Assembly: GCA_037139695.1 (NCBI GenBank)
Contig: JBAXFX010000001.1
Coordinates: 1-54,449, forward strand
From: Candidatus Moraniibacteriota bacterium
Lineage (GTDB): Bacteria > Patescibacteriota > Minisyncoccia > Moranbacterales > UBA1568
Direction of reading: 5' to 3'
DNA: 54,449 nt
In this document: in pieces, positions 12,039-46,112 of the stretch
Position numbering within the stretch: the first letter of the stretch is position 1
Layout of the letters: the number at the start of each line of letters is the position of its first letter
Position numbers and translations under genes: made by a program
The notes under the pieces: model-generated
Told to the model about the DNA's origin: nothing
Seen by the model: only the letters and a program-made list of their open reading frames with translations
Databases searched by the model: none

Positions 12039-13991
<1,953 letters not shown>

Positions 13992-14103
13992 GTCAGAAGA
14001 ATCAAAAAATGAAGAACCTTTAGAATAGAGAAAAAAGCAAAAAGAGGCAAACTCACACCAGACCCAATCTTCTCATATGGTCGAGCCCTCGATACCACGT
14101 CAA

Positions 14104-15267
14104 TTATCTATTTCCCTTCGCGCGATTGTGCGTCTTACAAAGCATCTGACAATTCTTTTCCGAAGTCGCGCCGCCCTTGCTCCACGCCGCCACATGATCA
14201 GCATCCATTTCATCCGCCTTCCACATTTTTTCCTTGTTCGCATCATGTCCCATCGCGCACAGCGGACAGTTCGAAACCCCTTTCTTTTCCGCAACGGCGG
14301 TCTGTTTCGCATAGACGGACTTCTTGGTCGCTTCGTCGAAAATCCTGACCTCAAGCAATTTCGTGTCAGTGGAACCACCGAGTACATATTCGAAGACTCC
14401 CTTGCGATTCTTGATATACGGGTCACCGTAGAGCGCGCGCACCTCGTCCGACACTTTCGCGGGGTCGTAGGCATCCTTGTGATACGTCTCGTACAGCCGC
14501 CCCCATTGCAGTCCGCGCATCTCGCTCTCCACATCCGTAAACACGCCCGACACCCAGTCGATCACGGTATTGAAATACGTCTTTACCTCTGCGATGGTCG
14601 TGTCGAATCGATGTCTGCTCATATACTCACCGATTTCTCCGCGGCTCACCCACTCGAGCGCCCGTTCCCAGAAGTCCTGACGATTGGCACTCCCTGATAC
14701 ATATGCGCTCCATTTCTGGATATTGGCGTTTCCGCTATTACTGAATTCTTCCTTGCCGAGCGTGATAAAAGGACCGGAATAAACGGCGTTCAACAATTCC
14801 TGCGTGTTCAGAGGCACGCCCGCAATATTGATCGTCTTGAACCATTCCTTGATTTCGCTCTCTTCCCCTTCACACTCATAGATGAGCAGCTTCGTTTCCA
14901 TAATCAAAGCCCTCTTATCAGCAGCCATACCGGTAAAGTTCTGCGGCAACCCGTTTTCGTCTTTGAAGGCGAATTTATCGTTAACGAATCGTCCGACACT
15001 GGTGATGCGCTGCTGTCCGTCCAATACCTCGTATATCCCTTCACTCACGGTATTGAAATAGATGAGTCCGAGCGGATACCCCTTCAAAATCGACTCGATA
15101 ACCGCGACATCCCGCTTGCCGTCGGCATAGATATAATTTCGCTGATACTCCGGCTGAATAGTAAGCTTGCCGGCCAAACCGAACAGTCCCTTACCCTCAA
15201 GCTCGTTATACACGAACCCGTCGCAGATATCTTTCACGGTGATGTCGGTCCTCAGTGTCGTTTTCAT
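14104..15267 (-). CDS. DUF262 (ParB-like NTPase/nuclease) domain protein with C-terminal HNH nuclease; GmrSD-like type IV restriction candidate
   Basis: 387 aa. DUF262 hallmarks '[11 protein letters not shown]' and 'LDGQQRITS'. C-terminal HNH '[32 protein letters not shown]'. Confidence 0.85.
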
Positions 15268-15279
15268 ACGATATGATCA

Positions 15280-16329
15280 TCAATTATTCGTACCGCCCTT
15301 CCGTTCCTTTTTTACTTTTTTCTCCAACATCGTGATACGTTCCAGATATTCCTTCTCGACCGGAGAAAGGGTCTTGGCCTGATATTTCCGGTATTCCATT
15401 TCGGCTTTTTCCATCGCTTTTTCGTGTGTCACCGTTCCGGCACCGGAGAGGACGCCTTCTCCATACTCGGAAAGCAGTTTGTCCAGTGCCGCGATATGCT
15501 CCGTCATACGCATCGCTTGCCGATTCATGGCGCGCAATTCGGCCAATTCGAAATATGCCGAAACGAACCTGTTCAGTTTCTCCAATTCCTCGGCAGACAG
15601 ATAATTCTTGGCAATCCTGACTTCTTCCAATACGGGCAAATCCCCCGCGAAAGCCGTCAAACCCATGAATTCCTTGCCACTGTCGGCGCGATTGAAAATG
15701 ACTTCCGCCGCCGTCTGTTTATGCGCGCCATAATGCAGTTTGTTCTGTACGATTTTGAAAAACTCTATCGAGTGCAGGGATTTCGGATCATAATCGACGC
15801 TGGTGGCATACAGGTCCAGAACCTGCCGATACAGCATCTTTTCGCTGGACCGTATGTCTCGGATGCGGGACAGCAGCTTTTCCCAATACCGACCGCCACC
15901 GTTGTTTTTCAAGAATTCATCATTCATCGAGAACCCCTGAACGAGATATTCCTTCAATCGTTCGGTCGCCCACACGCGAAATTGCGTGCCTCGCAATGAA
16001 TTCACGCGATAGCCGACGGAAATGATGGCGTCGAGGTTATAGAGCTTCGTCGGTCGATTTATCTCTCTTTCACCCTCTTTTTGAACTACCGAGGATTTCT
16101 CGGATGTTCGATTCTCTTGTAATTCTCCCTCCGAATATATATTTTTCAAATGCAATCCGACATTATCCGCCGAGCAACCGAAAAGCTCCGCCATCTGCTT
16201 TTGCGAAAGCCACACGGTCTCGCCTTCGACACGCACCTCGATGCCAGGGGCACCGTCCGCACCCGTATAGATGATCACTTTGCCGTGATCATCCACGTCC
16301 GATGTTTTTTTCCTATTTTGCGTATTCAT
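15280..16329 (-). CDS. RhuM family virulence/defence-island protein
   Basis: 349 aa. 'VWLSQKQMAELF', 'YNLDAIISVGYRVNSLRGTQFRVWATERLKEYLVQGFSMNDEFLKN' and 'YRQVLDLYATSVDY' match my recollection of the RhuM (PF13310) family. Confidence 0.8.
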   Translation of the reverse strand: MNTQNRKKTSDVDDHGKVIIYTGADGAPGIEVRVEGETVWLSQKQMAELFGCSADNVGLHLKNIYSEGELQENRTSEKSSVVQKEGEREINRPTKLYNLDAIISVGYRVNSLRGTQFRVWATERLKEYLVQGFSMNDEFLKNNGGGRYWEKLLSRIRDIRSSEKMLYRQVLDLYATSVDYDPKSLHSIEFFKIVQNKLHYGAHKQTAAEVIFNRADSGKEFMGLTAFAGDLPVLEEVRIAKNYLSAEELEKLNRFVSAYFELAELRAMNRQAMRMTEHIAALDKLLSEYGEGVLSGAGTVTHEKAMEKAEMEYRKYQAKTLSPVEKEYLERITMLEKKVKKERKGGTNN

Positions 16330-16393
16330 AACCGTTCATCAAAATGACAACAAACCCAGCGCGTCTCGAAAATAGCGAGGGAAGCGTCGGGGT

Positions 16394-17245
16394 TCATGAT
16401 GCAATCAAATCAAAGTTCATATTTTTAAGTTTAGAATCAAAGAATAAAATCTCTTCGCCTTTTTTTGTTCGAAAAGCCGTGTGAGTCAAATTGAATTCAT
16501 AGCTATTTTTAACAAATGCGTAAATGTTTTTTATTTCTGCCGCGTTGTCATAAGAAACTATCCAATGAATTTTTTTTATTTTTTTAATTTCTTGGGACAC
16601 CTTTTTATGATCATCGTTGTTATAAGAATTTTTATAAAGCCGTGGACCTTTTAAGTAATAAGGAGGATCAAAATAGAAAATGGTATTTGCATTATTTGAT
16701 TCTTCTTTTATTTTCTTGATTAATTCCAAAGCGTCCTCATTGAACAGTCTTATATTTTTCCTATGTTTCGCGATGAGCCGTATTCTTTTAATAAGCTCTT
16801 CTTTATTGAAACGGCAATCCATTTTATAATTTCCGCTCTGCTCAAGTCCACCGATAACTCCAGCGTCCATGATGCCCGAACGGTTTGTCCTGTTCAGAAA
16901 TAAAGTCGAGAACCCCAGTTCCAAGATATCGGCGTCATTTTTCCTTTTCTGAATTTCCCTCATTTTCAACCAATTTTCGATATTTACATCCGTTTTTTCT
17001 ATCAAATCACATATTTTATTTGTTCGATTCAAAACAGAGTACCAAAAGGCATAAATGGAACGATCGTAATCATTTATCGTGATTCTATCTACTTTGTCTT
17101 CCAGCAATAAATACAAAGCCACTGAAGCCCCCCCGGCATACGGCTCTACATAATGCCCACGGATATTGTTATCAACGCAAATCTGGGCAATGAACTTTGC
17201 CAGTCTATTTTTTCCGCCAGGATATCTCAGTGGCGAGTAAAACAT
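16394..17245 (-). CDS. Dam-like (D12 class) N6-adenine DNA methyltransferase
   Basis: 283 aa. 'LRYPGGKNRLAKFI', SAM motif 'YVEPYAGGASVAL' and catalytic 'FYFDPPYY'. Strongly AT-rich coding sequence (about 32% GC in one hand-counted line from this patch). Confidence 0.85.
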   Translation of the reverse strand: MFYSPLRYPGGKNRLAKFIAQICVDNNIRGHYVEPYAGGASVALYLLLEDKVDRITINDYDRSIYAFWYSVLNRTNKICDLIEKTDVNIENWLKMREIQKRKNDADILELGFSTLFLNRTNRSGIMDAGVIGGLEQSGNYKMDCRFNKEELIKRIRLIAKHRKNIRLFNEDALELIKKIKEESNNANTIFYFDPPYYLKGPRLYKNSYNNDDHKKVSQEIKKIKKIHWIVSYDNAAEIKNIYAFVKNSYEFNLTHTAFRTKKGEEILFFDSKLKNMNFDLIAS

Positions 17246-17247
17246 AT

Positions 17248-18540
17248 TTATTTTTTCTGGGCTTTAAAATAAGTCTCAAGAATATCTCCTGTGACATATG
17301 ACATATTCATAACATCATTCTTAGAGACTATAACATTCCCATGTGCAAAATTTCCTAACAATGCGTCGAGGTTAAAATTTTTGTTTAAATAATCTGATGT
17401 TATACTTAAGTATCCATCAGTGTTTTTCTCAGCGTATTCTCGTTGGAACAACTTAATTAAATCTTTATATGGATTTTCTTGTTTGGCATTTGTAATATCC
17501 CCCTGCTTATTGTAATAGACCCTCGCCGCAACATCTAAAATTAGACGTAGAGACATCCCTACAATCAATAGAATCTTATCATCATCTCGTCCCTTTTTGT
17601 GGATTTTATCAATAGCAAGATACAAATCATTTACAGGACCCTTCTCAAGTTCAAGAATTCTCCCAAAAAGAATCTCGCTTCTTTTTGTTGCTGGTGTTTT
17701 TTGAAGTTTAATAAATTTATCCGTTCGCTCCTTACCGATCGAAATCTCTTCAAGATTTCCTTTTTTTGGATTTTTGAATATCTCACGAATTTGCTCGTCA
17801 TTATCAATTATTGATTTCAATTTTCCTCGGTTCTTTCGAGTAGATATTTCCTTCTTTTTTAAAGCATTCTGTGTTGCTTCAAAAATTTTCACAAGTTGTT
17901 CAGCGGAGTATTTGCTATACAGTTTACCTGATTTAAAATCAATTCCTATATCTTTGAGGTTTTTTTCATTCAAAACCTCGTCCTTTACAAATCTTTTATT
18001 TAAGATTTTATTTCCTTTTATAAATCCTGTCTGTTCATTAATCGCCACAAAAATAGATTTCGCTTCTTTTTTGAAATTCAACAAAAAATAATCTCTCTCA
18101 AGTTCTCCCCACGACCCATTATCGACATGTTTTCTTTCAATACTGGTAATAGCAGTATTTTCATCGCAAACATTACATGGAAGAGTGGTTTGATTCCTTA
18201 AAAATTCTGGTTCATATTCCCGAAACAACTTTCCGACGTACTTAGAATACTTGTCATCGTTCTGTATAACTTTCAGTAAAGCAACCCTCCTGTTGCCATC
18301 ATAAACCACGTACTTTCCATCCTTTTTAACAACTATTGGCAACTCTGAATAATCATAATACTCGCCCATTTTTTTCACCAGCCTTTGTATATTCCATTTG
18401 TTATCTGTATCTTGTATAATGCGATCGATTATCTCTTCATCCGTTTTTTCGGCGTCAATAGGATCTCTCGGATTCTCTGTCCAGAGATATAAATCTTTTA
18501 TAGGAATGCGTAAAATCTTTTGCATCATAACTCTAAGCAT
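17248..18540 (-). CDS. ParB/Srx-fold N-terminal domain protein with an uncharacterised C-terminal region of about 330 aa
   Basis: 430 aa. 'LRIPIKDLYLWTENPRDP' followed about 58 aa later by 'VVYDGNRRVALLKV', the ParB-type NPR...G-x-R-R arrangement. The start overlaps the stop of the upstream MTase by 1 nt (TAATG), and its stop is 2 nt from the Dam-like ATG. AT-rich. Confidence 0.6.
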   Translation of the reverse strand: MLRVMMQKILRIPIKDLYLWTENPRDPIDAEKTDEEIIDRIIQDTDNKWNIQRLVKKMGEYYDYSELPIVVKKDGKYVVYDGNRRVALLKVIQNDDKYSKYVGKLFREYEPEFLRNQTTLPCNVCDENTAITSIERKHVDNGSWGELERDYFLLNFKKEAKSIFVAINEQTGFIKGNKILNKRFVKDEVLNEKNLKDIGIDFKSGKLYSKYSAEQLVKIFEATQNALKKKEISTRKNRGKLKSIIDNDEQIREIFKNPKKGNLEEISIGKERTDKFIKLQKTPATKRSEILFGRILELEKGPVNDLYLAIDKIHKKGRDDDKILLIVGMSLRLILDVAARVYYNKQGDITNAKQENPYKDLIKLFQREYAEKNTDGYLSITSDYLNKNFNLDALLGNFAHGNVIVSKNDVMNMSYVTGDILETYFKAQKK

Positions 18541-19682
18541 TATCTCTTATGCCGAATAAAGATCCGCTTGAACGTCTCACTTCCATTTAGATAAGAGCCA
18601 CGCCCATAAACACCTTTTTGATCCTGATCAACACCTCGATTCGAGCCGATAATCTCGAACTGTTCTGGAGAATACTTATCAAGGAAGCTGATCGGGACTC
18701 CCATGACACCAGGGTAGTCACTTGGGATGGAGTCCGTAAACGAAACTTCAATGGCATCATAATTATCGTATGTGTCATATGTTGCTTTTCCCTTGATTTC
18801 TTTGTGCCTGCTATATTTCAAATTCTCTTCCATGGTCATGAGTGGCAACGGCTGATGGCGCCTTCCGTGGTCGAGTCGAGTGAACCAGCATGAGTTTCCG
18901 AGTCTCGTGTAGTCACCAACATACCCCAATCGGGCCGCTTTCTGCCTATCGCTCTCCGCGATTTCTGCACCATTCGGCACGGCGAAAACCATATCACTCC
19001 CATTCCCCGTCGCACCAAGCCACAGCTTGTTTTCCTTGATTTTTGGAAACACTTCCTTGTAGGTGATCGCGTTCATGTTGCCGATAATCACGAACTTCTT
19101 ATCGTACTCAAACAATTGCTTCACGTATTCACGGAAGAGCGAAAATGGCGGGTTCGTCACCACGATATCGGCTTGTTTCAATAATTCCACGCACTCCGGG
19201 CTCCTGAAATCGCCGTCTTCCTCGAGCGGTGCCCATTCATTATGCTTGTTCGCCTTCAACTGTTCGGCAATGTCTTTCAAATTATATTCACCATCGCCGT
19301 CGAAATCGCGCGCTTCGTTGATGATAAATCTGTTGGCGGTTATTTTCGGTCTCCCTTTTGGTTCTGCTGGTTTACTCAAAACTTTCTCTTCATACCCTTG
19401 GAAAAGGGACGCCTGTAATGCCAGTTCCGTACCGGCAATCGGCGACGGCTTAAAACTCGTCGTAATGAGCCGCTTCAATCCAAGCTTGTTGAAATTGATC
19501 ACGAAAAAACGGAAGAAATTGCTTTCGTAGGGATCGTCACAGTTGGAATACACCGTCTTGCCCCGAAACGCGTCGGGGTCGAAATCCAAATACGCCCCGA
19601 TTTCCTTTTGGATATCGTTGAATTGCGTATAAAACTCATCGTTTTTCGCCCGTTTCGCATTCGTGAGATTGCTGTTCGCCAT
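18540..19682 (-). CDS. EcoRI-family N6-adenine DNA methyltransferase
   Basis: 380 aa. The N-terminus 'NAKRAKNDEFYTQFNDIQKEI...KTVYSNCDDPYESNFFRFFVINFNKLGLKRL' closely resembles M.EcoRI as I recall it. Catalytic 'IVVTNPPFSLFREY'. Confidence 0.85.
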   Translation of the reverse strand: MANSNLTNAKRAKNDEFYTQFNDIQKEIGAYLDFDPDAFRGKTVYSNCDDPYESNFFRFFVINFNKLGLKRLITTSFKPSPIAGTELALQASLFQGYEEKVLSKPAEPKGRPKITANRFIINEARDFDGDGEYNLKDIAEQLKANKHNEWAPLEEDGDFRSPECVELLKQADIVVTNPPFSLFREYVKQLFEYDKKFVIIGNMNAITYKEVFPKIKENKLWLGATGNGSDMVFAVPNGAEIAESDRQKAARLGYVGDYTRLGNSCWFTRLDHGRRHQPLPLMTMEENLKYSRHKEIKGKATYDTYDNYDAIEVSFTDSIPSDYPGVMGVPISFLDKYSPEQFEIIGSNRGVDQDQKGVYGRGSYLNGSETFKRIFIRHKR

Positions 19683-19861
19683 AGCCGCCTTCAGGGTACC
19701 GGATCAGAATATATACGACAAACGTTTTTCCGCCTCGTCTCCATATTCAAACAATATCCTGTTTAAGCCAAAAAGACAAGAACCCTCCCAAAAATAAAAT
19801 GACTCTTTGTTGTATTTTGACCCCATAAAATTTCGAGTACGAAATCACGAGGCATGCTTTT

Positions 19862-19900
19862 AATTGTTCACTTCTCCGCTCCCTGACTTTCGACTTCCGA
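19862..19900. repeat. Short degenerate heptamer-periodic tract immediately 3' of murJ
   Basis: 'ttcactt|ctccgct|ccctgac|tttcgac|ttccgat' has 7-nt periodicity, in the same style as the tracts at 36451, 38793 and 39793. Confidence 0.35.
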
Positions 19901-21568
19901 TCACCACTCCCCTTTCTCCGGATGACCCTCGACCGACGGGACGACTTCCGGATTGCGGCGGACCTTGGACAGGATGAACTTCCAGAGCGAGCGTAGTTCG
20001 CTTATCTTAAACCAGTTGCCGAGGAGCAGGAAAGTCCCGAGACCGAGAAGGGTTCCGAAACTGAGCTGGAGGAACACTTTGAGGAACGTGTCGAGTGGCG
20101 ACATCGTAAAAAACGAGAACAGCGTTTTCGAAAGCTGGGCAACGATGCCGGCCAGAATCGCCGACAGAAAGATGAGCGCATTCTCGCGGAAGAACTGCGC
20201 GTCGTCCCATCCTTCGATCCGCTTCCGAAGCGCGAGCAGGAGAAAGAGAAAATTTGCCGCGCTCCCAAGCGAGAACGCCATAGCAAGCGCATCGGTGCCG
20301 TATCGCGGGAGGAGAAATATCGCCGACCCGACATAGATAGCCTCGCCGAGGATCGCGTAGAGAAAGGGCGTCTTCGAATCCTGTATCGCGTAGAACGCCC
20401 GAGCGAAGAGCGGTATAAGCGCCTGAGCGAAGAGACTGACGGAAAGCCATCCGAGTACACCGAACGTTGCCCTCGTATCGTCCCAGTCGAACCGGCCGCT
20501 CCCAAGGACGACCCGGACAACCTGTGCCCGGAAGACGACGAACAGCATGGCGACCGGAACGACGAAAAAGAGGATGCGCCTCGTCGTACGGGAGAGCGTT
20601 TCGAAAAACTCCCCGTTACGCTTCTCGGTCGCGGAGAACGAAAGTGTCGGGAAGGCGGCAAGCGAGAACGAGACCGCAAAGAGTCCGATCGGAATCGCCT
20701 CGATGTTCGAGGCAAGCGAAAAGATCGCGAGGCTCCCGGACGCGAGCATGGAGGCGAAGACCGTCGTTAAAAAAAGACTCAACTGGTTCGCCGCGATGCC
20801 AAGAGTGCGCGGGATCATAAGCATCACGACGCGCCGGACCGGCCCATCGAACCGAAGCGGGTGACGGAAAAGCGCAGGGAAAAACTTCCGGCTCCGCACC
20901 GATGGGATCTGCACCGACATGTGCAACAACGCGCCAAGCGCGACTCCCCACGCGAGCCCGGAAATACCGAATATCGGCACGAAAACAGTGATGCCGAGAA
21001 TGATACCGGCATTATAGATGATCGGTGCGAGCGAATAGGCCGTGAAACAACGGAAGGTGAGCAGCATCCCACCGAAGACCGCGCTTGCCCCGAGAAACAA
21101 CGGGGAAAGCAGCATGATCCGGGTCAGTTCGACGGTCATCGCGCGTTTCTCGTCGGAAAAACCGGGCGCGAGTACCGTCACGATGGCCGGTGCCGCGATA
21201 ATCGCGATGATCGAGACCGCGCCGAGCACGAGCAGTATCCACTCCAGGACGCCGGCCGCCAGATCAAGCGCCTCTTTCTTCTTCTCTTTCGAGATGAATT
21301 CCGTGAAGACCGGAACGAACGCCGCCGACAGCGCACCCATCACGAGCAGATTATAGAGGGTATCCGGGATGCGAAACGCGGCATAGTACGCGTCGAGCGT
21401 GTCGCCGGCACCGAAATGGCCGGCAAGGAGCCGGTCGCGGACAAACCCGAGCAGCCGACTCGCGATGCCGGCGGCCGCGATGACGAATGCCGCACCACCG
21501 ACCGTTTCCGACTGTGCATTTGCCAGGTTCCGCAGGAAGGCGAATTTCTTCTTCAGGAAAGACATCAT
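19901..21568 (-). CDS. murJ: Lipid II flippase MurJ
   Basis: Polytopic membrane protein. 'ASRLLGFVRDRLLAGHFGAGDTLDAYYAAFRIPDTLYNLL' is the MurJ/MviN N-terminal signature. The start is placed at MMSFLKK (21568) to avoid overlapping the upstream stop; the ORF extends to 21631. Confidence 0.9.
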   Translation of the reverse strand: MMSFLKKKFAFLRNLANAQSETVGGAAFVIAAAGIASRLLGFVRDRLLAGHFGAGDTLDAYYAAFRIPDTLYNLLVMGALSAAFVPVFTEFISKEKKKEALDLAAGVLEWILLVLGAVSIIAIIAAPAIVTVLAPGFSDEKRAMTVELTRIMLLSPLFLGASAVFGGMLLTFRCFTAYSLAPIIYNAGIILGITVFVPIFGISGLAWGVALGALLHMSVQIPSVRSRKFFPALFRHPLRFDGPVRRVVMLMIPRTLGIAANQLSLFLTTVFASMLASGSLAIFSLASNIEAIPIGLFAVSFSLAAFPTLSFSATEKRNGEFFETLSRTTRRILFFVVPVAMLFVVFRAQVVRVVLGSGRFDWDDTRATFGVLGWLSVSLFAQALIPLFARAFYAIQDSKTPFLYAILGEAIYVGSAIFLLPRYGTDALAMAFSLGSAANFLFLLLALRKRIEGWDDAQFFRENALIFLSAILAGIVAQLSKTLFSFFTMSPLDTFLKVFLQLSFGTLLGLGTFLLLGNWFKISELRSLWKFILSKVRRNPEVVPSVEGHPEKGEW

Positions 21569-21575
21569 AGGTTCA

Positions 21576-24047
21576 TCATTTCGTGGAAAGCACCGCACCG
21601 TAATAGGCATCCGTCGACAAGGTCGCATCAAACGAAAATCCCTGCCGGTCCCGATTCACCCCGTCGGAATGCCAATCGGCATTAAACCGGTCCGGAAAAG
21701 AAAACCTGGAATGAAGCGTACTCCCGTCGGTTCCCGACTGTTTCTGAAAAAGAATCGAATACGACGACGGATCGGCAGGTTGTGGCGAGACCCTGAACGG
21801 GAGACGGTACGTATATTCGACCGTCACGCTCTCCCCCGGGCTCACATAGACCCAGTTCCCGAACACCGTCTTCCCGGTCTCTTCCGAGATGCGCGTACCG
21901 CCCGGATCGACCGTTGTCGTGGACTCTTCCTTCACCACGTCATCGTCACGCTTGAACCCGAGTGCGTCATAGTCGAGCGGAGCCTTCGGAAACTCGTACG
22001 TCTGTCCGGACGCCGAGACAAGCTCGGAACCCTTGGGAACGTATACACGCATATAGTCCGAATTCACCTTGTTGAACCAATCATATGGCATGCCTCCCCC
22101 GGTATGTTTCCTGGTTATCCGAACCGTGTCAAGGACGGAGCCGTCCGATTGTACGACAGCCTGATGCTCGATCGTCTCGCGTATCACGGCGTCGGTCTTG
22201 TATCCATTGAGGTTGGTATGGACCACGCTCAGGTAATCACGTGGCGTATCGAGCATCCTCCCCGACCAGCCGGCCTGATCGATCAGCTTTTCCACGTCCG
22301 CGTTCCGGGAATACAGCAAGATATCCTTCTCGTTGAGTGCCTGGGAAAACGTATTGGCAAGCGAAACCAACATGGACGCGCTCCGGAGCGAGAACAACCG
22401 CTCGAGCAGGACGGGCGCGAGGTCGGAAAGGATTCTCTTCGGTTGGTTGAGAGTATGGTCGTAGTTCTCTTCGACTTCCGCCTGAATCGCCTGTGAAAAA
22501 TTATCCGCGTCGATCGTCACGCCGTAATCCGGCATCTCGATAGGACCCGTTAACACAAGCAGGTCCCGAAGCACGTTCGGCGTAAGCGTGACGATACCGT
22601 CCACGGTCGGACCACCGGTCTTCTCATAGAAGAACATCGCTTTCTCCGCCGAGGTCGGAAAATCCGGCCACCAATTGCTGTCATGGAGGCTCCAGCCCGC
22701 ACTCACCTTCTGTATCGGCGCCGGCGGAACGATATTCTCCTTCAGCTGCCCGTCCGGATTGAAAATCCCATCAACAAAGAGCTTCCCGATGTGACCGTTA
22801 TCCACTTTCAAAAGGCCGTAGCTTCCGATGAACCCGCCGGTCGGTCGAAGTTCGGCGTTGTTCTGAAAGAGGAACAGATACACGCGCGGTCCGTTCGCGC
22901 CCAGGAGTTCCCGGACCAGATGGGAATTTCCGTTGAAACCCTCGAGCACTGTCGCGATCACAGGCAATTTCTCGCGAATGGAAAGGAAGGTCGCCCGCTT
23001 GTCTTCCGGCACATCCTCGGGGCGGACCCGGGCGAACGCCCCTTGTGCCGCCACGACTTCTTTTTCCGCCGTCGACGATCCCTGCTCCGCCTTGTCGATA
23101 AGATCAAGAAATGATACGTTGCCACTTTTGACGGCATCGGTCGGCGATGCAGGCAGAAGCTCGAGTATCCCGCTCATGGCGACCCCTGCCGCGGAAAGAT
23201 GCTTGGCGCCCTCGAGCAACCCCTGATCGGAAGCGACTGAAGAAAGTCCCGGGATAAATCGTGCCGCCTTCGCAAGTTCATTGCCTACAGCACCAAGCGA
23301 GTCCGATGCCGCAGAGAATGTCTTGTACGCCTCGGAAAAATTTTTCGACGAGCCGGAAAAGTTTGCGCTCGTCAGATCGTTCATCGCCTGGGACGCGAGC
23401 GACGCGCCCTCGATACTTTCCCCGAGCACCTCGCCCTTGATGACGGTCAGGCGATATGCCCCGAAGGCGCCGCCGCCAAGCACGAGTACGATCGCAAAGA
23501 CAATCGCCGTCCGACGGATAAGCGTATCGGAAACAGCTATCGGTATGGGTTGAAACCGAAAGAAAGTCGGCATCGAAAATTTCGCGTCCCGAAACGAGTC
23601 GTATGCGTCCGACAATCGTCGGAAGAACCCTCCCTTCGCCGACATCGTGGAGTTCGATTGTCTTTCCTGTTCCGGTTCCGGCTCGCATGTCTCGATAGCC
23701 GGTTCCTCATCCGTTACCGTATCCCACGGTTCTTCTTGGCCGTCCCGACTTTCTTCTTCTACGAAAACGGAAGGTCGCCCATCGAGCTCGGCATGAAACA
23801 GCGGTCGATAAATCCGCTCAGCGTTCGGGAGTCGTGTACTGAATTCCTGTTCGGCCGGCGTATCAAACCGCTCAATCACCTCTGATTTCTCGAACACGGG
23901 AGTCTCATCCATGACAACCTCCCCATAGCCCTCTTTGCGAGGTGAGCCGACGGCATCGATCCGCTCCCAATCCAAAGCACCCGACCGGTTGGTCGGTCGG
24001 ACATCGAACATCTGCGGGATAATATGCTTTCTCGATTTCGATTCCAT
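21576..24047 (-). CDS. DUF4012 domain membrane protein with a long acidic, disordered N-terminal region
   Basis: 823 aa. A TM segment around residues 185-205. 'YLFLFQNNAELRPTGGFIGSYG' matches the DUF4012 hallmark as I recall it. Confidence 0.7.
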   Translation of the reverse strand: MESKSRKHIIPQMFDVRPTNRSGALDWERIDAVGSPRKEGYGEVVMDETPVFEKSEVIERFDTPAEQEFSTRLPNAERIYRPLFHAELDGRPSVFVEEESRDGQEEPWDTVTDEEPAIETCEPEPEQERQSNSTMSAKGGFFRRLSDAYDSFRDAKFSMPTFFRFQPIPIAVSDTLIRRTAIVFAIVLVLGGGAFGAYRLTVIKGEVLGESIEGASLASQAMNDLTSANFSGSSKNFSEAYKTFSAASDSLGAVGNELAKAARFIPGLSSVASDQGLLEGAKHLSAAGVAMSGILELLPASPTDAVKSGNVSFLDLIDKAEQGSSTAEKEVVAAQGAFARVRPEDVPEDKRATFLSIREKLPVIATVLEGFNGNSHLVRELLGANGPRVYLFLFQNNAELRPTGGFIGSYGLLKVDNGHIGKLFVDGIFNPDGQLKENIVPPAPIQKVSAGWSLHDSNWWPDFPTSAEKAMFFYEKTGGPTVDGIVTLTPNVLRDLLVLTGPIEMPDYGVTIDADNFSQAIQAEVEENYDHTLNQPKRILSDLAPVLLERLFSLRSASMLVSLANTFSQALNEKDILLYSRNADVEKLIDQAGWSGRMLDTPRDYLSVVHTNLNGYKTDAVIRETIEHQAVVQSDGSVLDTVRITRKHTGGGMPYDWFNKVNSDYMRVYVPKGSELVSASGQTYEFPKAPLDYDALGFKRDDDVVKEESTTTVDPGGTRISEETGKTVFGNWVYVSPGESVTVEYTYRLPFRVSPQPADPSSYSILFQKQSGTDGSTLHSRFSFPDRFNADWHSDGVNRDRQGFSFDATLSTDAYYGAVLSTK

Positions 24048-46036: not shown

Positions 46037-46112
46037 GCCGATGTAGCTCAGTTGGTAGAGCAACGCACTCGTAACGCGTAGGTCGTCGGTTCAAATCCGA
46101 CCATCGGCTCCA
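46037..46112 (+). tRNA. tRNA-Thr (anticodon CGU)
   Basis: Hand-folded cloverleaf. Acceptor GCCGATG/CATCGGC, D arm GCTC-AGTTGGTA-GAGC, anticodon loop CTCGTAA (CGT), T arm GTCGG-TTCAAAT-CCGAC, and an encoded CCA. There is one A-C mismatch at the base of the anticodon stem. Confidence 0.9.

Follow-up and report, generated by a model that had tools for sequence, protein, structure and literature searches.

The locus described here occupies positions 14104–19682 of contig JBAXFX010000001.1 (assembly GCA_037139695.1, Candidatus Moraniibacteriota bacterium), whose 54,449 nt are referred to as the window. It consists of five tightly packed genes of one orientation between murJ and lepA, and is probably a composite nested defence island framed by a mobile two-gene restriction-modification (R-M) module. 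The outer genes, M for a methyltransferase (MTase) and R for a putative nuclease, would form the frame, and the three genes between them its cargo. Judged by sequence, the parts are a PD-lambda-5-like pair (A and B), a RhuM gene of the PDC-S05 family and an R-M pair for which sequence models are the only source of knowledge. From 5' to 3' on the minus strand the order is M, A, B, RhuM, R; by coordinate, the genes are:

14104–15267, minus strand: R (g1), DUF262-HNH protein, 387 aa
15280–16329, minus strand: RhuM (g2), 349 aa
16394–17245, minus strand: B (g3), D12-class MTase, 283 aa
17248–18540, minus strand: A (g4), ParB-fold protein, open reading frame (ORF) of 430 aa
18540–19682, minus strand: M (g5), EcoRI-family MTase, 380 aa

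The true start of g4 is likely to be at 18528; the protein then has 426 aa, in agreement with the NCBI call. M and R are thereby split by 3.27 kb (three genes), with spacers, from M to R, of about 11, 2, 64 and 12 nt. An independent ENA contig (L001; L-numbers denote comparative loci) carries the same five-gene layout and encodes a LepA 100% identical to that of the window; an exact look-up of this LepA found no record of it.

In the mechanism we propose, M would mark host DNA by N6-methyladenine (m6A) methylation, and R, with its DUF262 NTPase-like domain and HNH nuclease domain, would cut unmarked incoming DNA. Two cargoes would lie between them in the same orientation, namely the PD-lambda-5-like pair g4 and g3, and RhuM (g2), which is a putative defence module of one gene and has been proposed to act as a toxin. 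Transcription of all five genes probably starts upstream of M, since the spacers are short. Nesting would be of advantage to the cargo, which would be co-transferred with an addictive R-M pair and would be hard to delete without harming M or R.

The outer pair M and R

Homologues of R are abundant, with more than 8000 clusters (90% identity) at E≤1e-10, and the best 120 of these are all at least 80% identical to the R of the window and come from many phyla. At E≤1e-30 there are 447 clusters, enough for a deep alignment. Gene context was read in a sample of 80 genome loci with R at 76–83% identity, from Patescibacteria, Chloroflexota, Bacteroidota, Proteobacteria, Omnitrophota and one record titled Pacearchaeota. 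An EcoRI-family MTase gene lies upstream of R, and co-oriented with it, in 73 of the 80 loci; most of the seven loci that lack M are cut by a contig end. M and R are directly adjacent (gap of at most 20 nt) in 41 of the 73. Another 20 show an apparent gap of 59–221 nt, mostly where the M alignment ends early (around query residue 346–355); M has a longer C-terminal variant where this was checked, and the true gaps are probably small. The remaining 12 contain 0.86–3.3 kb of cargo. The pairing persists at 36–43% R identity, is found on small plasmids and on Enterococcus megaplasmids, and occurs as a two-gene insert in the Flavobacterium phage laban6-1. This recurrence of M upstream of R, in 73 of 80 loci, in remote relatives, on plasmids and in a phage, argues that the M and R of the window are a single pair that has been split.

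The Pacearchaeota record (L030, DAOSDI010000028.1; R 79% identical to g1) is a metagenome-assembled genome (MAG) titled Candidatus Pacearchaeota archaeon, and reflects either inter-domain transfer or a binning error. In L031, L035, L048 and L079, DUF2130-like genes (N-terminal CPxCGKxFKxDEAGFAD) are located directly downstream of R, and may be associated with the R-M pair. No conserved sequence was apparent downstream of the R stop codon across 79 loci. A candidate recombination motif at the R junction ('...AAGAAAAAATAAT-ATG'; ATAATATGA in 27/79 loci) was rejected, as it is better read as the Lys-rich tail of M. The recurrent junction sequence is more simply explained by this tail together with a tight, possibly translationally coupled, stop/start arrangement, and no evidence for a recombination site at the R junction was found.

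M matches Pfam EcoRI_methylase (9e-121) and the PADLOC model MTase_II PDLC03297 (4e-101), both over its full length, and features the NPPF motif of an EcoRI-family, gamma-class N6-adenine MTase. R combines matches to Pfam GmrSD_N/DUF262 (8e-22) and HNH (8e-7). It also matches the PADLOC model REase_II PDLC03418 (1.5e-81; residues 8–386 against model positions 7–371 of 372), which is a match to a model carrying the name of a Type II restriction endonuclease and says nothing of activity. The residues conserved in R fit a nucleotide-hydrolysing DUF262 domain followed by a zinc-finger HNH: Q42, R43, D83, G84, R87, C334 and H358 are invariant, and Q85, Q86, C337, D357, N372, C377 and N381 nearly so. 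A profile built from 55 diverse relatives reached the HNH structure 4h9d (5e-7), McrA (6ghc, 1e-3) and the HNH domain of Cas9 among solved structures, as well as, weakly, the DUF262 domain of BrxU (7p9k, 1e-3). A phmmer search of the same structures with R gave no matches, and a shallow profile gave only chance matches to triosephosphate isomerase, so that the deeper profile was needed to reach HNH and BrxU. The AlphaFold model of R (mean predicted local distance difference test score, pLDDT, of 59 from a shallow alignment) was not used for a fold search.

An earlier note on this DNA, made from the sequence and a list of its ORFs, had described five co-oriented, packed genes between lepA and murJ, and every ORF was found where it had been placed. 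Its identification of DUF262-HNH, RhuM, Dam-like MTase and EcoRI-family MTase proteins is borne out by Pfam, including the assignment of the two N6-adenine MTases to different families (MethyltransfD12 and EcoRI_methylase). Its statement that no canonical restriction endonuclease can be recognised in the locus does not stand, given the full-length match of g1 to REase_II PDLC03418 and the partnership with M in 73 of 80 loci.

The pair resembles Type II R-M systems in consisting of separate, co-oriented and paired MTase and nuclease genes, with M belonging to the M.EcoRI (gamma-class, NPPF) family, and both proteins match PADLOC RM_type_II models over their full length. HNH active sites occur in several Type II restriction enzymes. 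R differs from orthodox Type II enzymes, however, in carrying a DUF262 nucleotide-hydrolysis domain (DGQQR); this conserved motif suggests an involvement of NTP that would depart from orthodox Type II restriction. Three other genes between M and R in the window are a further difference. With the GmrSD, BrxU and SspE nucleases (Type IV or phosphorothioate-sensing), R shares a DUF262 domain bearing DGQQR at its N-terminus and a nuclease domain of the His-Me type at its C-terminus, and by analogy its cleavage would be expected to be NTP-stimulated. Unlike these, R is much shorter (387 aa versus 587 aa for BrxU, 7p9k) and ends in a zinc-finger HNH (PF01844, in 54/55 family members) instead of DUF1524; GmrSD_C (DUF1524) was not among the families matched by the 55 members at E≤0.001. 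Moreover, it is coupled to a cognate-looking MTase and does not stand alone.

Orthodox Type II nucleases usually diverge faster than their MTases. Here the opposite holds: mean pairwise identity across 63 loci is 80% for R (minimum 73%) and 59% for M (minimum 43%), with the reservation that the loci were picked by R similarity, which sets a ceiling on R divergence. Even under this ceiling, nucleases so alike would be expected to have more similar MTases. The variation of M is concentrated around residues 101–140, 221–260 and 341–380, and the pairwise distances of M and R are correlated (Spearman 0.40). This reversal of the Type II expectation suggests that R may not read sequence by itself. 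A Marinilabiliaceae MAG (L038:6499–9856) features three intact tandem EcoRI-family MTases, 73–77% identical to each other, before a single R, and these may provide several specificities that serve one nuclease. The greater conservation of R and the tandem MTases would fit a nuclease without sequence specificity of its own, which we offer as a lead and not as a result. In the literature on PF13651/EcoRI_methylase, the M family was met in methods mentions only, with no specificity data. The conservation of R appears to be undescribed.

Cargo in the slot between M and R

The region between M and R is a variable slot with rapid exchange of cargo. In the 12 loci of the sample with cargo, the ORFs of the cargo all point the same way as M and R. 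They are listed here together with a more remote locus (L119) in which R is 36% identical to that of the window:

L046: CBASS cyclase, Cap15-like protein and Fic
L057: Old/AriA-like AAA_15 ATPase and DUF2130 protein (the latter at L057:8737–9999)
L016: PIN_8 protein
L030: Schlafen/AlbA_2 protein, 159-aa ORF (no Pfam match) and Bro-N protein
L040: C5 MTase and GHKL ATPase matching REase_II (a second R-M system)
L079: T5orf172 and DUF3800 proteins
L071: 302-aa PD-T7-1/5-like protein (PADLOC PD-T7-1/5 models matched, no Pfam match)
L007, L024, L077 (and L030): Bro-N protein of ~282 aa
L006: RhuM
L020: A and B
L119: NUMOD4/HNH_3 homing-endonuclease-like ORF

The position directly upstream of R is recurrently held by RhuM or by Bro-N. 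Among the Bro-N proteins only that of L007 was scanned against PADLOC, and it matches PDC-S13. Three cargo ORFs of 109, 144 and 137 aa in L077 and L079 have no Pfam match, and the DUF2130 and DUF3800 cargo proteins have no PADLOC match. In L119 (625–5548), a classical GmrSD (GmrSD_N and GmrSD_C) follows R at a distance of ~240 nt, after a 76-aa ORF.

The first cargo of the window resembles PD-lambda-5, an experimentally selected and broadly protective E. coli system interpreted by its authors as a compacted R-M and abortive infection system (Vassallo et al. 2022, PMC9519451). In E. coli, PD-lambda-5 is known to give phage resistance with its two genes, and its cloning needed a host lacking mrr, m6A being toxic where Mrr is present (PMC9519451). 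B matches PADLOC PD-Lambda-5_B (8.2e-117; residues 2–277 against model positions 4–277 of 291) and Pfam MethyltransfD12 (5e-20), as expected of a D12-class (Dam-like) N6-adenine MTase, and its translation shows DPPY and EPYAGG motifs. A matches 23 PADLOC families at E≤0.01, of which 22 are PD-Lambda-5_A models; the best match (2e-16) covers residues 12–96 only, and the longest covers 75% of the model at 4e-10. No Pfam family matched A, and even E≤1 gave nothing real. The earlier note had proposed a ParB fold for g4, which would make two ParB-superfamily proteins in the locus, and the structural prediction agrees: in the AlphaFold2 model (pLDDT 83), the N-terminal domain is matched by Foldseek to ParB (6sdk, 7bnk) and sulfiredoxin (Srx) with probability 0.9–0.99. 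A thus comprises a ParB/sulfiredoxin-like N-terminal domain with an invariant DGNRR and a helical C-terminal domain. A profile search of solved structures gave only a chance match to ClpC, and a HEPN assignment of the C-terminal domain was dropped (Foldseek E>1, no Rx4-6H motif). Alignment of the A and R families by hhalign gave a probability of 9%, and homology between them is not established.

The window pair and PD-lambda-5 share the two-gene order A then B, a D12-class MTase as B and a ParB-like N-terminal region in A. They differ in setting, the former being located inside another R-M operon of a Patescibacteria genome and the latter on an E. coli prophage. B always follows A in relatives. 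Homologues of g4 have these contexts:

L020 (g4 identity 75%): M-A-B-R
L109 (79%): M-A-B-NYN-RhuM-R
L111 (72%): M-A-B-MerR-DUF4325-R
L113 (71%): A-B between an N6_Mtase/Eco57I-type gene and a specificity-subunit gene, a different R-M system
L115 (65%): A-B after a Schlafen-like helicase

A-B is therefore an independent cassette, present also outside M-R (L113, L115). Its junctions retain traces of earlier arrangements. In L020, B ends and R begins within a shared ATGA. What comes after B in L109 is a truncated R copy (its first 16 codons), then NYN, RhuM and a complete R; in L111, it is a clear 5' remnant of Bro-N. These remnants of R and Bro-N after B indicate that the slot between B and R has been refilled repeatedly. 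In the window itself, an ATG overlapping the stop of B opens a frame into the spacer between B and RhuM (16330–16393, minus strand, 64 nt), with the translation MNPDASLAIFETRWV. A displaced Bro-N gene may have left its degraded 5' end in this spacer, to judge by a weak and loose likeness to the N-terminal pattern of Bro-N proteins, IAIFEGKxIRxxW. The corresponding spacer of the close relative L082 has ~20 extra nt (L082:4064–4085) that look like a local duplication of 'ATGAACGG', and is otherwise 97% identical to that of the window.

The second cargo, g2, matches Pfam Virulence_RhuM (PF13310; 1.2e-99, profile positions 2–248 of 252) and, over its full length, PADLOC PDC-S05 (6.6e-140). RhuM is also found directly upstream of R in L006, L013, L072, L083/L086 and L109. 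One representative of PDC-S05 (RhuM domain) protects E. coli on its own from T7, T5 and T4, with plating efficiency down ~1000-fold for T7 and T5 (10.1101/2024.09.26.614923). Genes resembling RhuM had earlier been described within R-M operons, with a toxin function proposed for them (Anantharaman et al. 2013, PMC3710099). As in the PrrC-containing R-M loci of that study, a full-length RhuM domain lies here inside an R-M operon; by contrast, the host operon of the window is a two-gene M-R pair without PrrC, and RhuM sits beside R in a slot held elsewhere by Bro-N/PDC-S13.

The earlier note did not recognise the gene combination as a named system. In the PADLOC check it had called for, g4 and g3 match both components of PD-lambda-5 and g2 is PDC-S05. 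The locus is thus classified under already named systems, and its reading as an unrecognised system fails. The nesting itself recalls the "guilt by embedding" of Payne et al. (2024, bioRxiv 10.1101/2024.01.29.577857), whose text names only Hma, BREX, DISARM and Type I R-M as hosts. Both cases feature unrelated defence modules nested in one orientation (here the window, 12/73 loci, L109, L111 and L119). The host in the present case differs in being a two-gene Type II-like pair (EcoRI-family MTase and DUF262-HNH) with a single slot, and the present data add near-isogenic exchange and the scars left by 5' remnants.

Age of the layers and route of arrival

Further features on which the comparison with relatives draws are:

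12039–13991: LepA flank, Pfam-confirmed
13792–14103, minus strand: region past the R stop codon (R-lepA spacer and lepA nt 1–200), where identity to L082 decays
15268–15279, minus strand: 12-nt junction upstream of R; the right cargo-exchange breakpoint lies within it and the last 15 nt of RhuM
19683–19900, minus strand: murJ-to-M spacer, 218 nt; left island boundary and presumed promoter region
19901–21631: MurJ flank, Pfam-confirmed

Only close relatives (L082, L084, L085) turned out to have the exact set of five genes, as the earlier note's proposed check for co-occurrence of the five families brought out. Between the window and L082, nucleotide identity is 95.1% for M, 99.6% for A, 99.8% for B, 96.7% for RhuM and 94.4% for R, and 80% for lepA beyond its first 200 nt. 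Divergence is thus ~20% in the host flanks, ~5% in M, RhuM and R, and ~0.3% in A-B. Base composition follows the same partition: GC is 0.57–0.60 in the flanks, 0.47–0.51 in g5, g2 and g1, and 0.33–0.35 in g4 and g3, and GC at third codon positions (GC3) is 0.75 for the whole of lepA, 0.57, 0.59 and 0.65 for M, RhuM and R, and 0.30 and 0.37 for A and B. The differences in per-segment identity and GC3 give three layers of different age, namely the host, an older and partly ameliorated frame of M, RhuM and R, and a recently arrived low-GC A-B cassette. The single unit implied by the earlier note is accordingly replaced by three modules of different ages.

Exchange of cargo was evident among near-isogenic genomes. 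From a point 27 nt before the R start codon, L082 and L083 match over 10,017 nt at 99.95% identity; they differ only in the cargo and the M sequence next to it. L083 and L086 carry an alternative cargo (a weakly HEPN-like ORF, T5orf172, and a RhuM 40% identical to g2), and identity of either the window or L082 with these loci resumes at the same point, 27 nt upstream of the R start. The 3' part of M in L083/L086 is only 95% identical to that of L082. L082, L083 and L086 come from one sample series, and the contigs end before the left limit of the exchanged segment is reached. The presence of different cargo in the near-isogenic L082 and L083 shows that cargo and adjoining M sequence are exchanged between near-isogenic genomes.

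The island is accessory, and occupies a variable site between murJ and lepA. The synteny check put forward in the earlier note settled this point, the island being absent from relatives with MurJ and LepA 92% identical to those of the window. The contents of the site in relatives are:

L088, L089 (MurJ 92%): three ORFs of the XRE-type helix-turn-helix (HTH) family; closest island-free relatives
L090 (MurJ 81%): membrane ORF on the other strand
L091 (MurJ 80%): M homologue, where the contig ends
L104 (MurJ 58%, C-terminal 84 residues only): truncated B beside an IS3-like transposase

In L088 (11928–13301) these are consecutive small XRE/Cro-type HTH ORFs of 130, 114 and 134 aa, and the gap of L089 is filled likewise. 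In L104 (431–2989), a truncated D12 MTase of the g3 type, with 85% nucleotide identity to g3, comes directly after murJ and before the IS3-like transposase (ORFs of 329 and 109 aa), which has the look of a decayed island.

No integrase or transposase gene was found within about 4 kb on either side of the island, in keeping with the earlier note, and no repeats or att sites bracket it. The island therefore differs from those borne by an integrase or transposase, as it has no recombinase gene, flanking repeats or conserved termini. Only the degraded relative L104 has a transposase (IS3-like) nearby. No tRNA or other RNA was detected near the island; the sole tRNA of the window is at 46037. The BLAST alignment with L082 forms a 96% tract from 5 nt upstream of the M start to ~200 nt inside lepA; past the R stop codon, identity is 78% in the spacer (101/112 nt aligned) and 90% in lepA nt 1–200, and the murJ-M spacer is unalignable. 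The fading of this high-identity tract only ~200 nt inside lepA points to homologous recombination via the conserved flanks as the likely route of arrival.

Two features of the flanking genes were noted in passing. The longest MurJ ORF (576 aa, TTG start) overlaps the end of a DUF4012 gene by 56 nt (21576–21631), and the later start of the ENA-contig gene caller, giving 555 aa, is probably correct. The GTPase domain of LepA contains a lineage-specific low-complexity insertion (window 13680–13830, about residues 55–105). LepA has 650 aa in the window versus 623–628 aa in relatives and varies between contigs; the insertion segment is unalignable between relatives, and BLAST alignments break there.

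Alternative readings and implications

Several observations weigh against the composite reading. Nearly all comparative loci are metagenome assemblies. A matches the PD-Lambda-5_A models mostly over its N-terminal 100–310 residues, and no tblastn- or BLAST-level relative of A was present in phage or plasmid collections. Scans of the island for promoters, and likewise for terminators, gave matches at chance level only, and so lend its co-transcription no support. The conservation of R above that of M, with R possibly lacking a sequence reading of its own, is not what a cognate Type II pair would lead one to expect. No characterised recognition site or cleavage activity for the M-R family was found in the literature searched, so that the restriction role of M-R rests on the gene pairing and on the name of the PADLOC Type II restriction endonuclease model. 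Lastly, the g4 homologues examined at ≥72% identity are all located inside M...R, and the M tail ('...HKKK*'), a 10–11 nt spacer and the A start form a junction common to the window and L082, L020, L109 and L111. The recurrence of this junction in four divergent lineages could mean that M-A-B-R is functionally integrated and not just nested.

These last two points are central to an alternative in which M-A-B-R is an integrated four-gene system of two m6A MTases and two ParB/DUF262-fold proteins, with RhuM as an optional add-on. The overlap of B stop and R start in L020 and the scar of the same arrangement in L109 speak for it, as does the pairing, in both modules, of an m6A MTase with a ParB-fold protein; hhalign also places DGNRR and DGQQR in register, at the low probability given above. 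Yet A-B occurs without M-R in L113, within a different R-M system, and in L115, and M-R occurs without A-B in ~98% of the sampled loci. Between the window and L082, moreover, A-B shows only about a tenth of the divergence of M and R, and its GC3 is very different, which indicates that A-B moves independently. We therefore regard such integration as unlikely. To extend it to a single novel defence system of all five components, on account of the tight packing, the shared orientation and the same five genes in L082, L084 and L085, seems to us scarcely credible: those three loci are close relatives with an island 96% identical, the components are found elsewhere in many other combinations, each module matches an existing PADLOC model, the layers differ in age and base composition, and a near-isogenic contig with the same R carries different cargo.

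The relation between M and R may also be questioned. R could be a modification-dependent Type IV (GmrSD/BrxU-like) nuclease that is independent of M, with the MTase serving protection from other nucleases or epigenetic marking. The combination of DUF262 and DGQQR marks out the GmrSD, BrxU and SspE family, the R profile weakly matches the corresponding domain of BrxU, some homologues are annotated as McrA by JGI, and R is strongly conserved, as would suit a nuclease of relaxed sequence specificity. Adjacency to an MTase in 73/80 loci, usually within 20 nt, which extends to R proteins of only 36% identity, to plasmids and to a phage, is the signature of a cognate pair, however; the C-terminal domain is a canonical HNH and not DUF1524, and PADLOC files the R family among Type II restriction endonuclease models. 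An R acting apart from M is thus quite improbable. That the nesting came about by accident at murJ-lepA as a generic insertion hotspot, and that the split of M...R has no wider meaning, is in our view very unlikely: the murJ-lepA gap is indeed variable in relatives and defence islands are common, but cargo lies between M and R in unrelated contexts and phyla (the 12/73 loci as well as L109, L111 and L119), is always co-oriented and usually tightly spaced, and is swapped in population variants while R and its flank stay 99.95% identical. It is tempting to go further, and to speculate that the M-R pair represents a distinct R-M class, in which a conserved NTP-dependent R that does not read sequence would be guided or licensed by a variable M as in Type I and Type III systems, and in which the M-R junction would be a general docking slot that spreads cassettes across phyla and is stabilised by addiction to the pair. 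This has some chance of being correct, albeit a rather small one.

A composite nested island framed by M-R thus remains the reading we favour, and the locus then combines known parts in a nested arrangement that has been little described. No prior description of the M-R pair as a recurrent carrier, of strain-level cargo exchange or of the scars was found in the literature searched. A split M...R pair is easily misread as two orphan genes, and its inner cargo as parts of a new system, and many similar loci should probably be re-read as a split pair with cargo. The slot between M and R of this very common pair offers a compact hunting ground for new defence genes, and extends "guilt by embedding" to two-gene R-M systems. 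The R family, abundant, uncharacterised and more conserved than its MTase, is a good target for biochemistry. For Patescibacteria, the near-isogenic variants document turnover of defence cargo at the level of strains, with no associated integrase.

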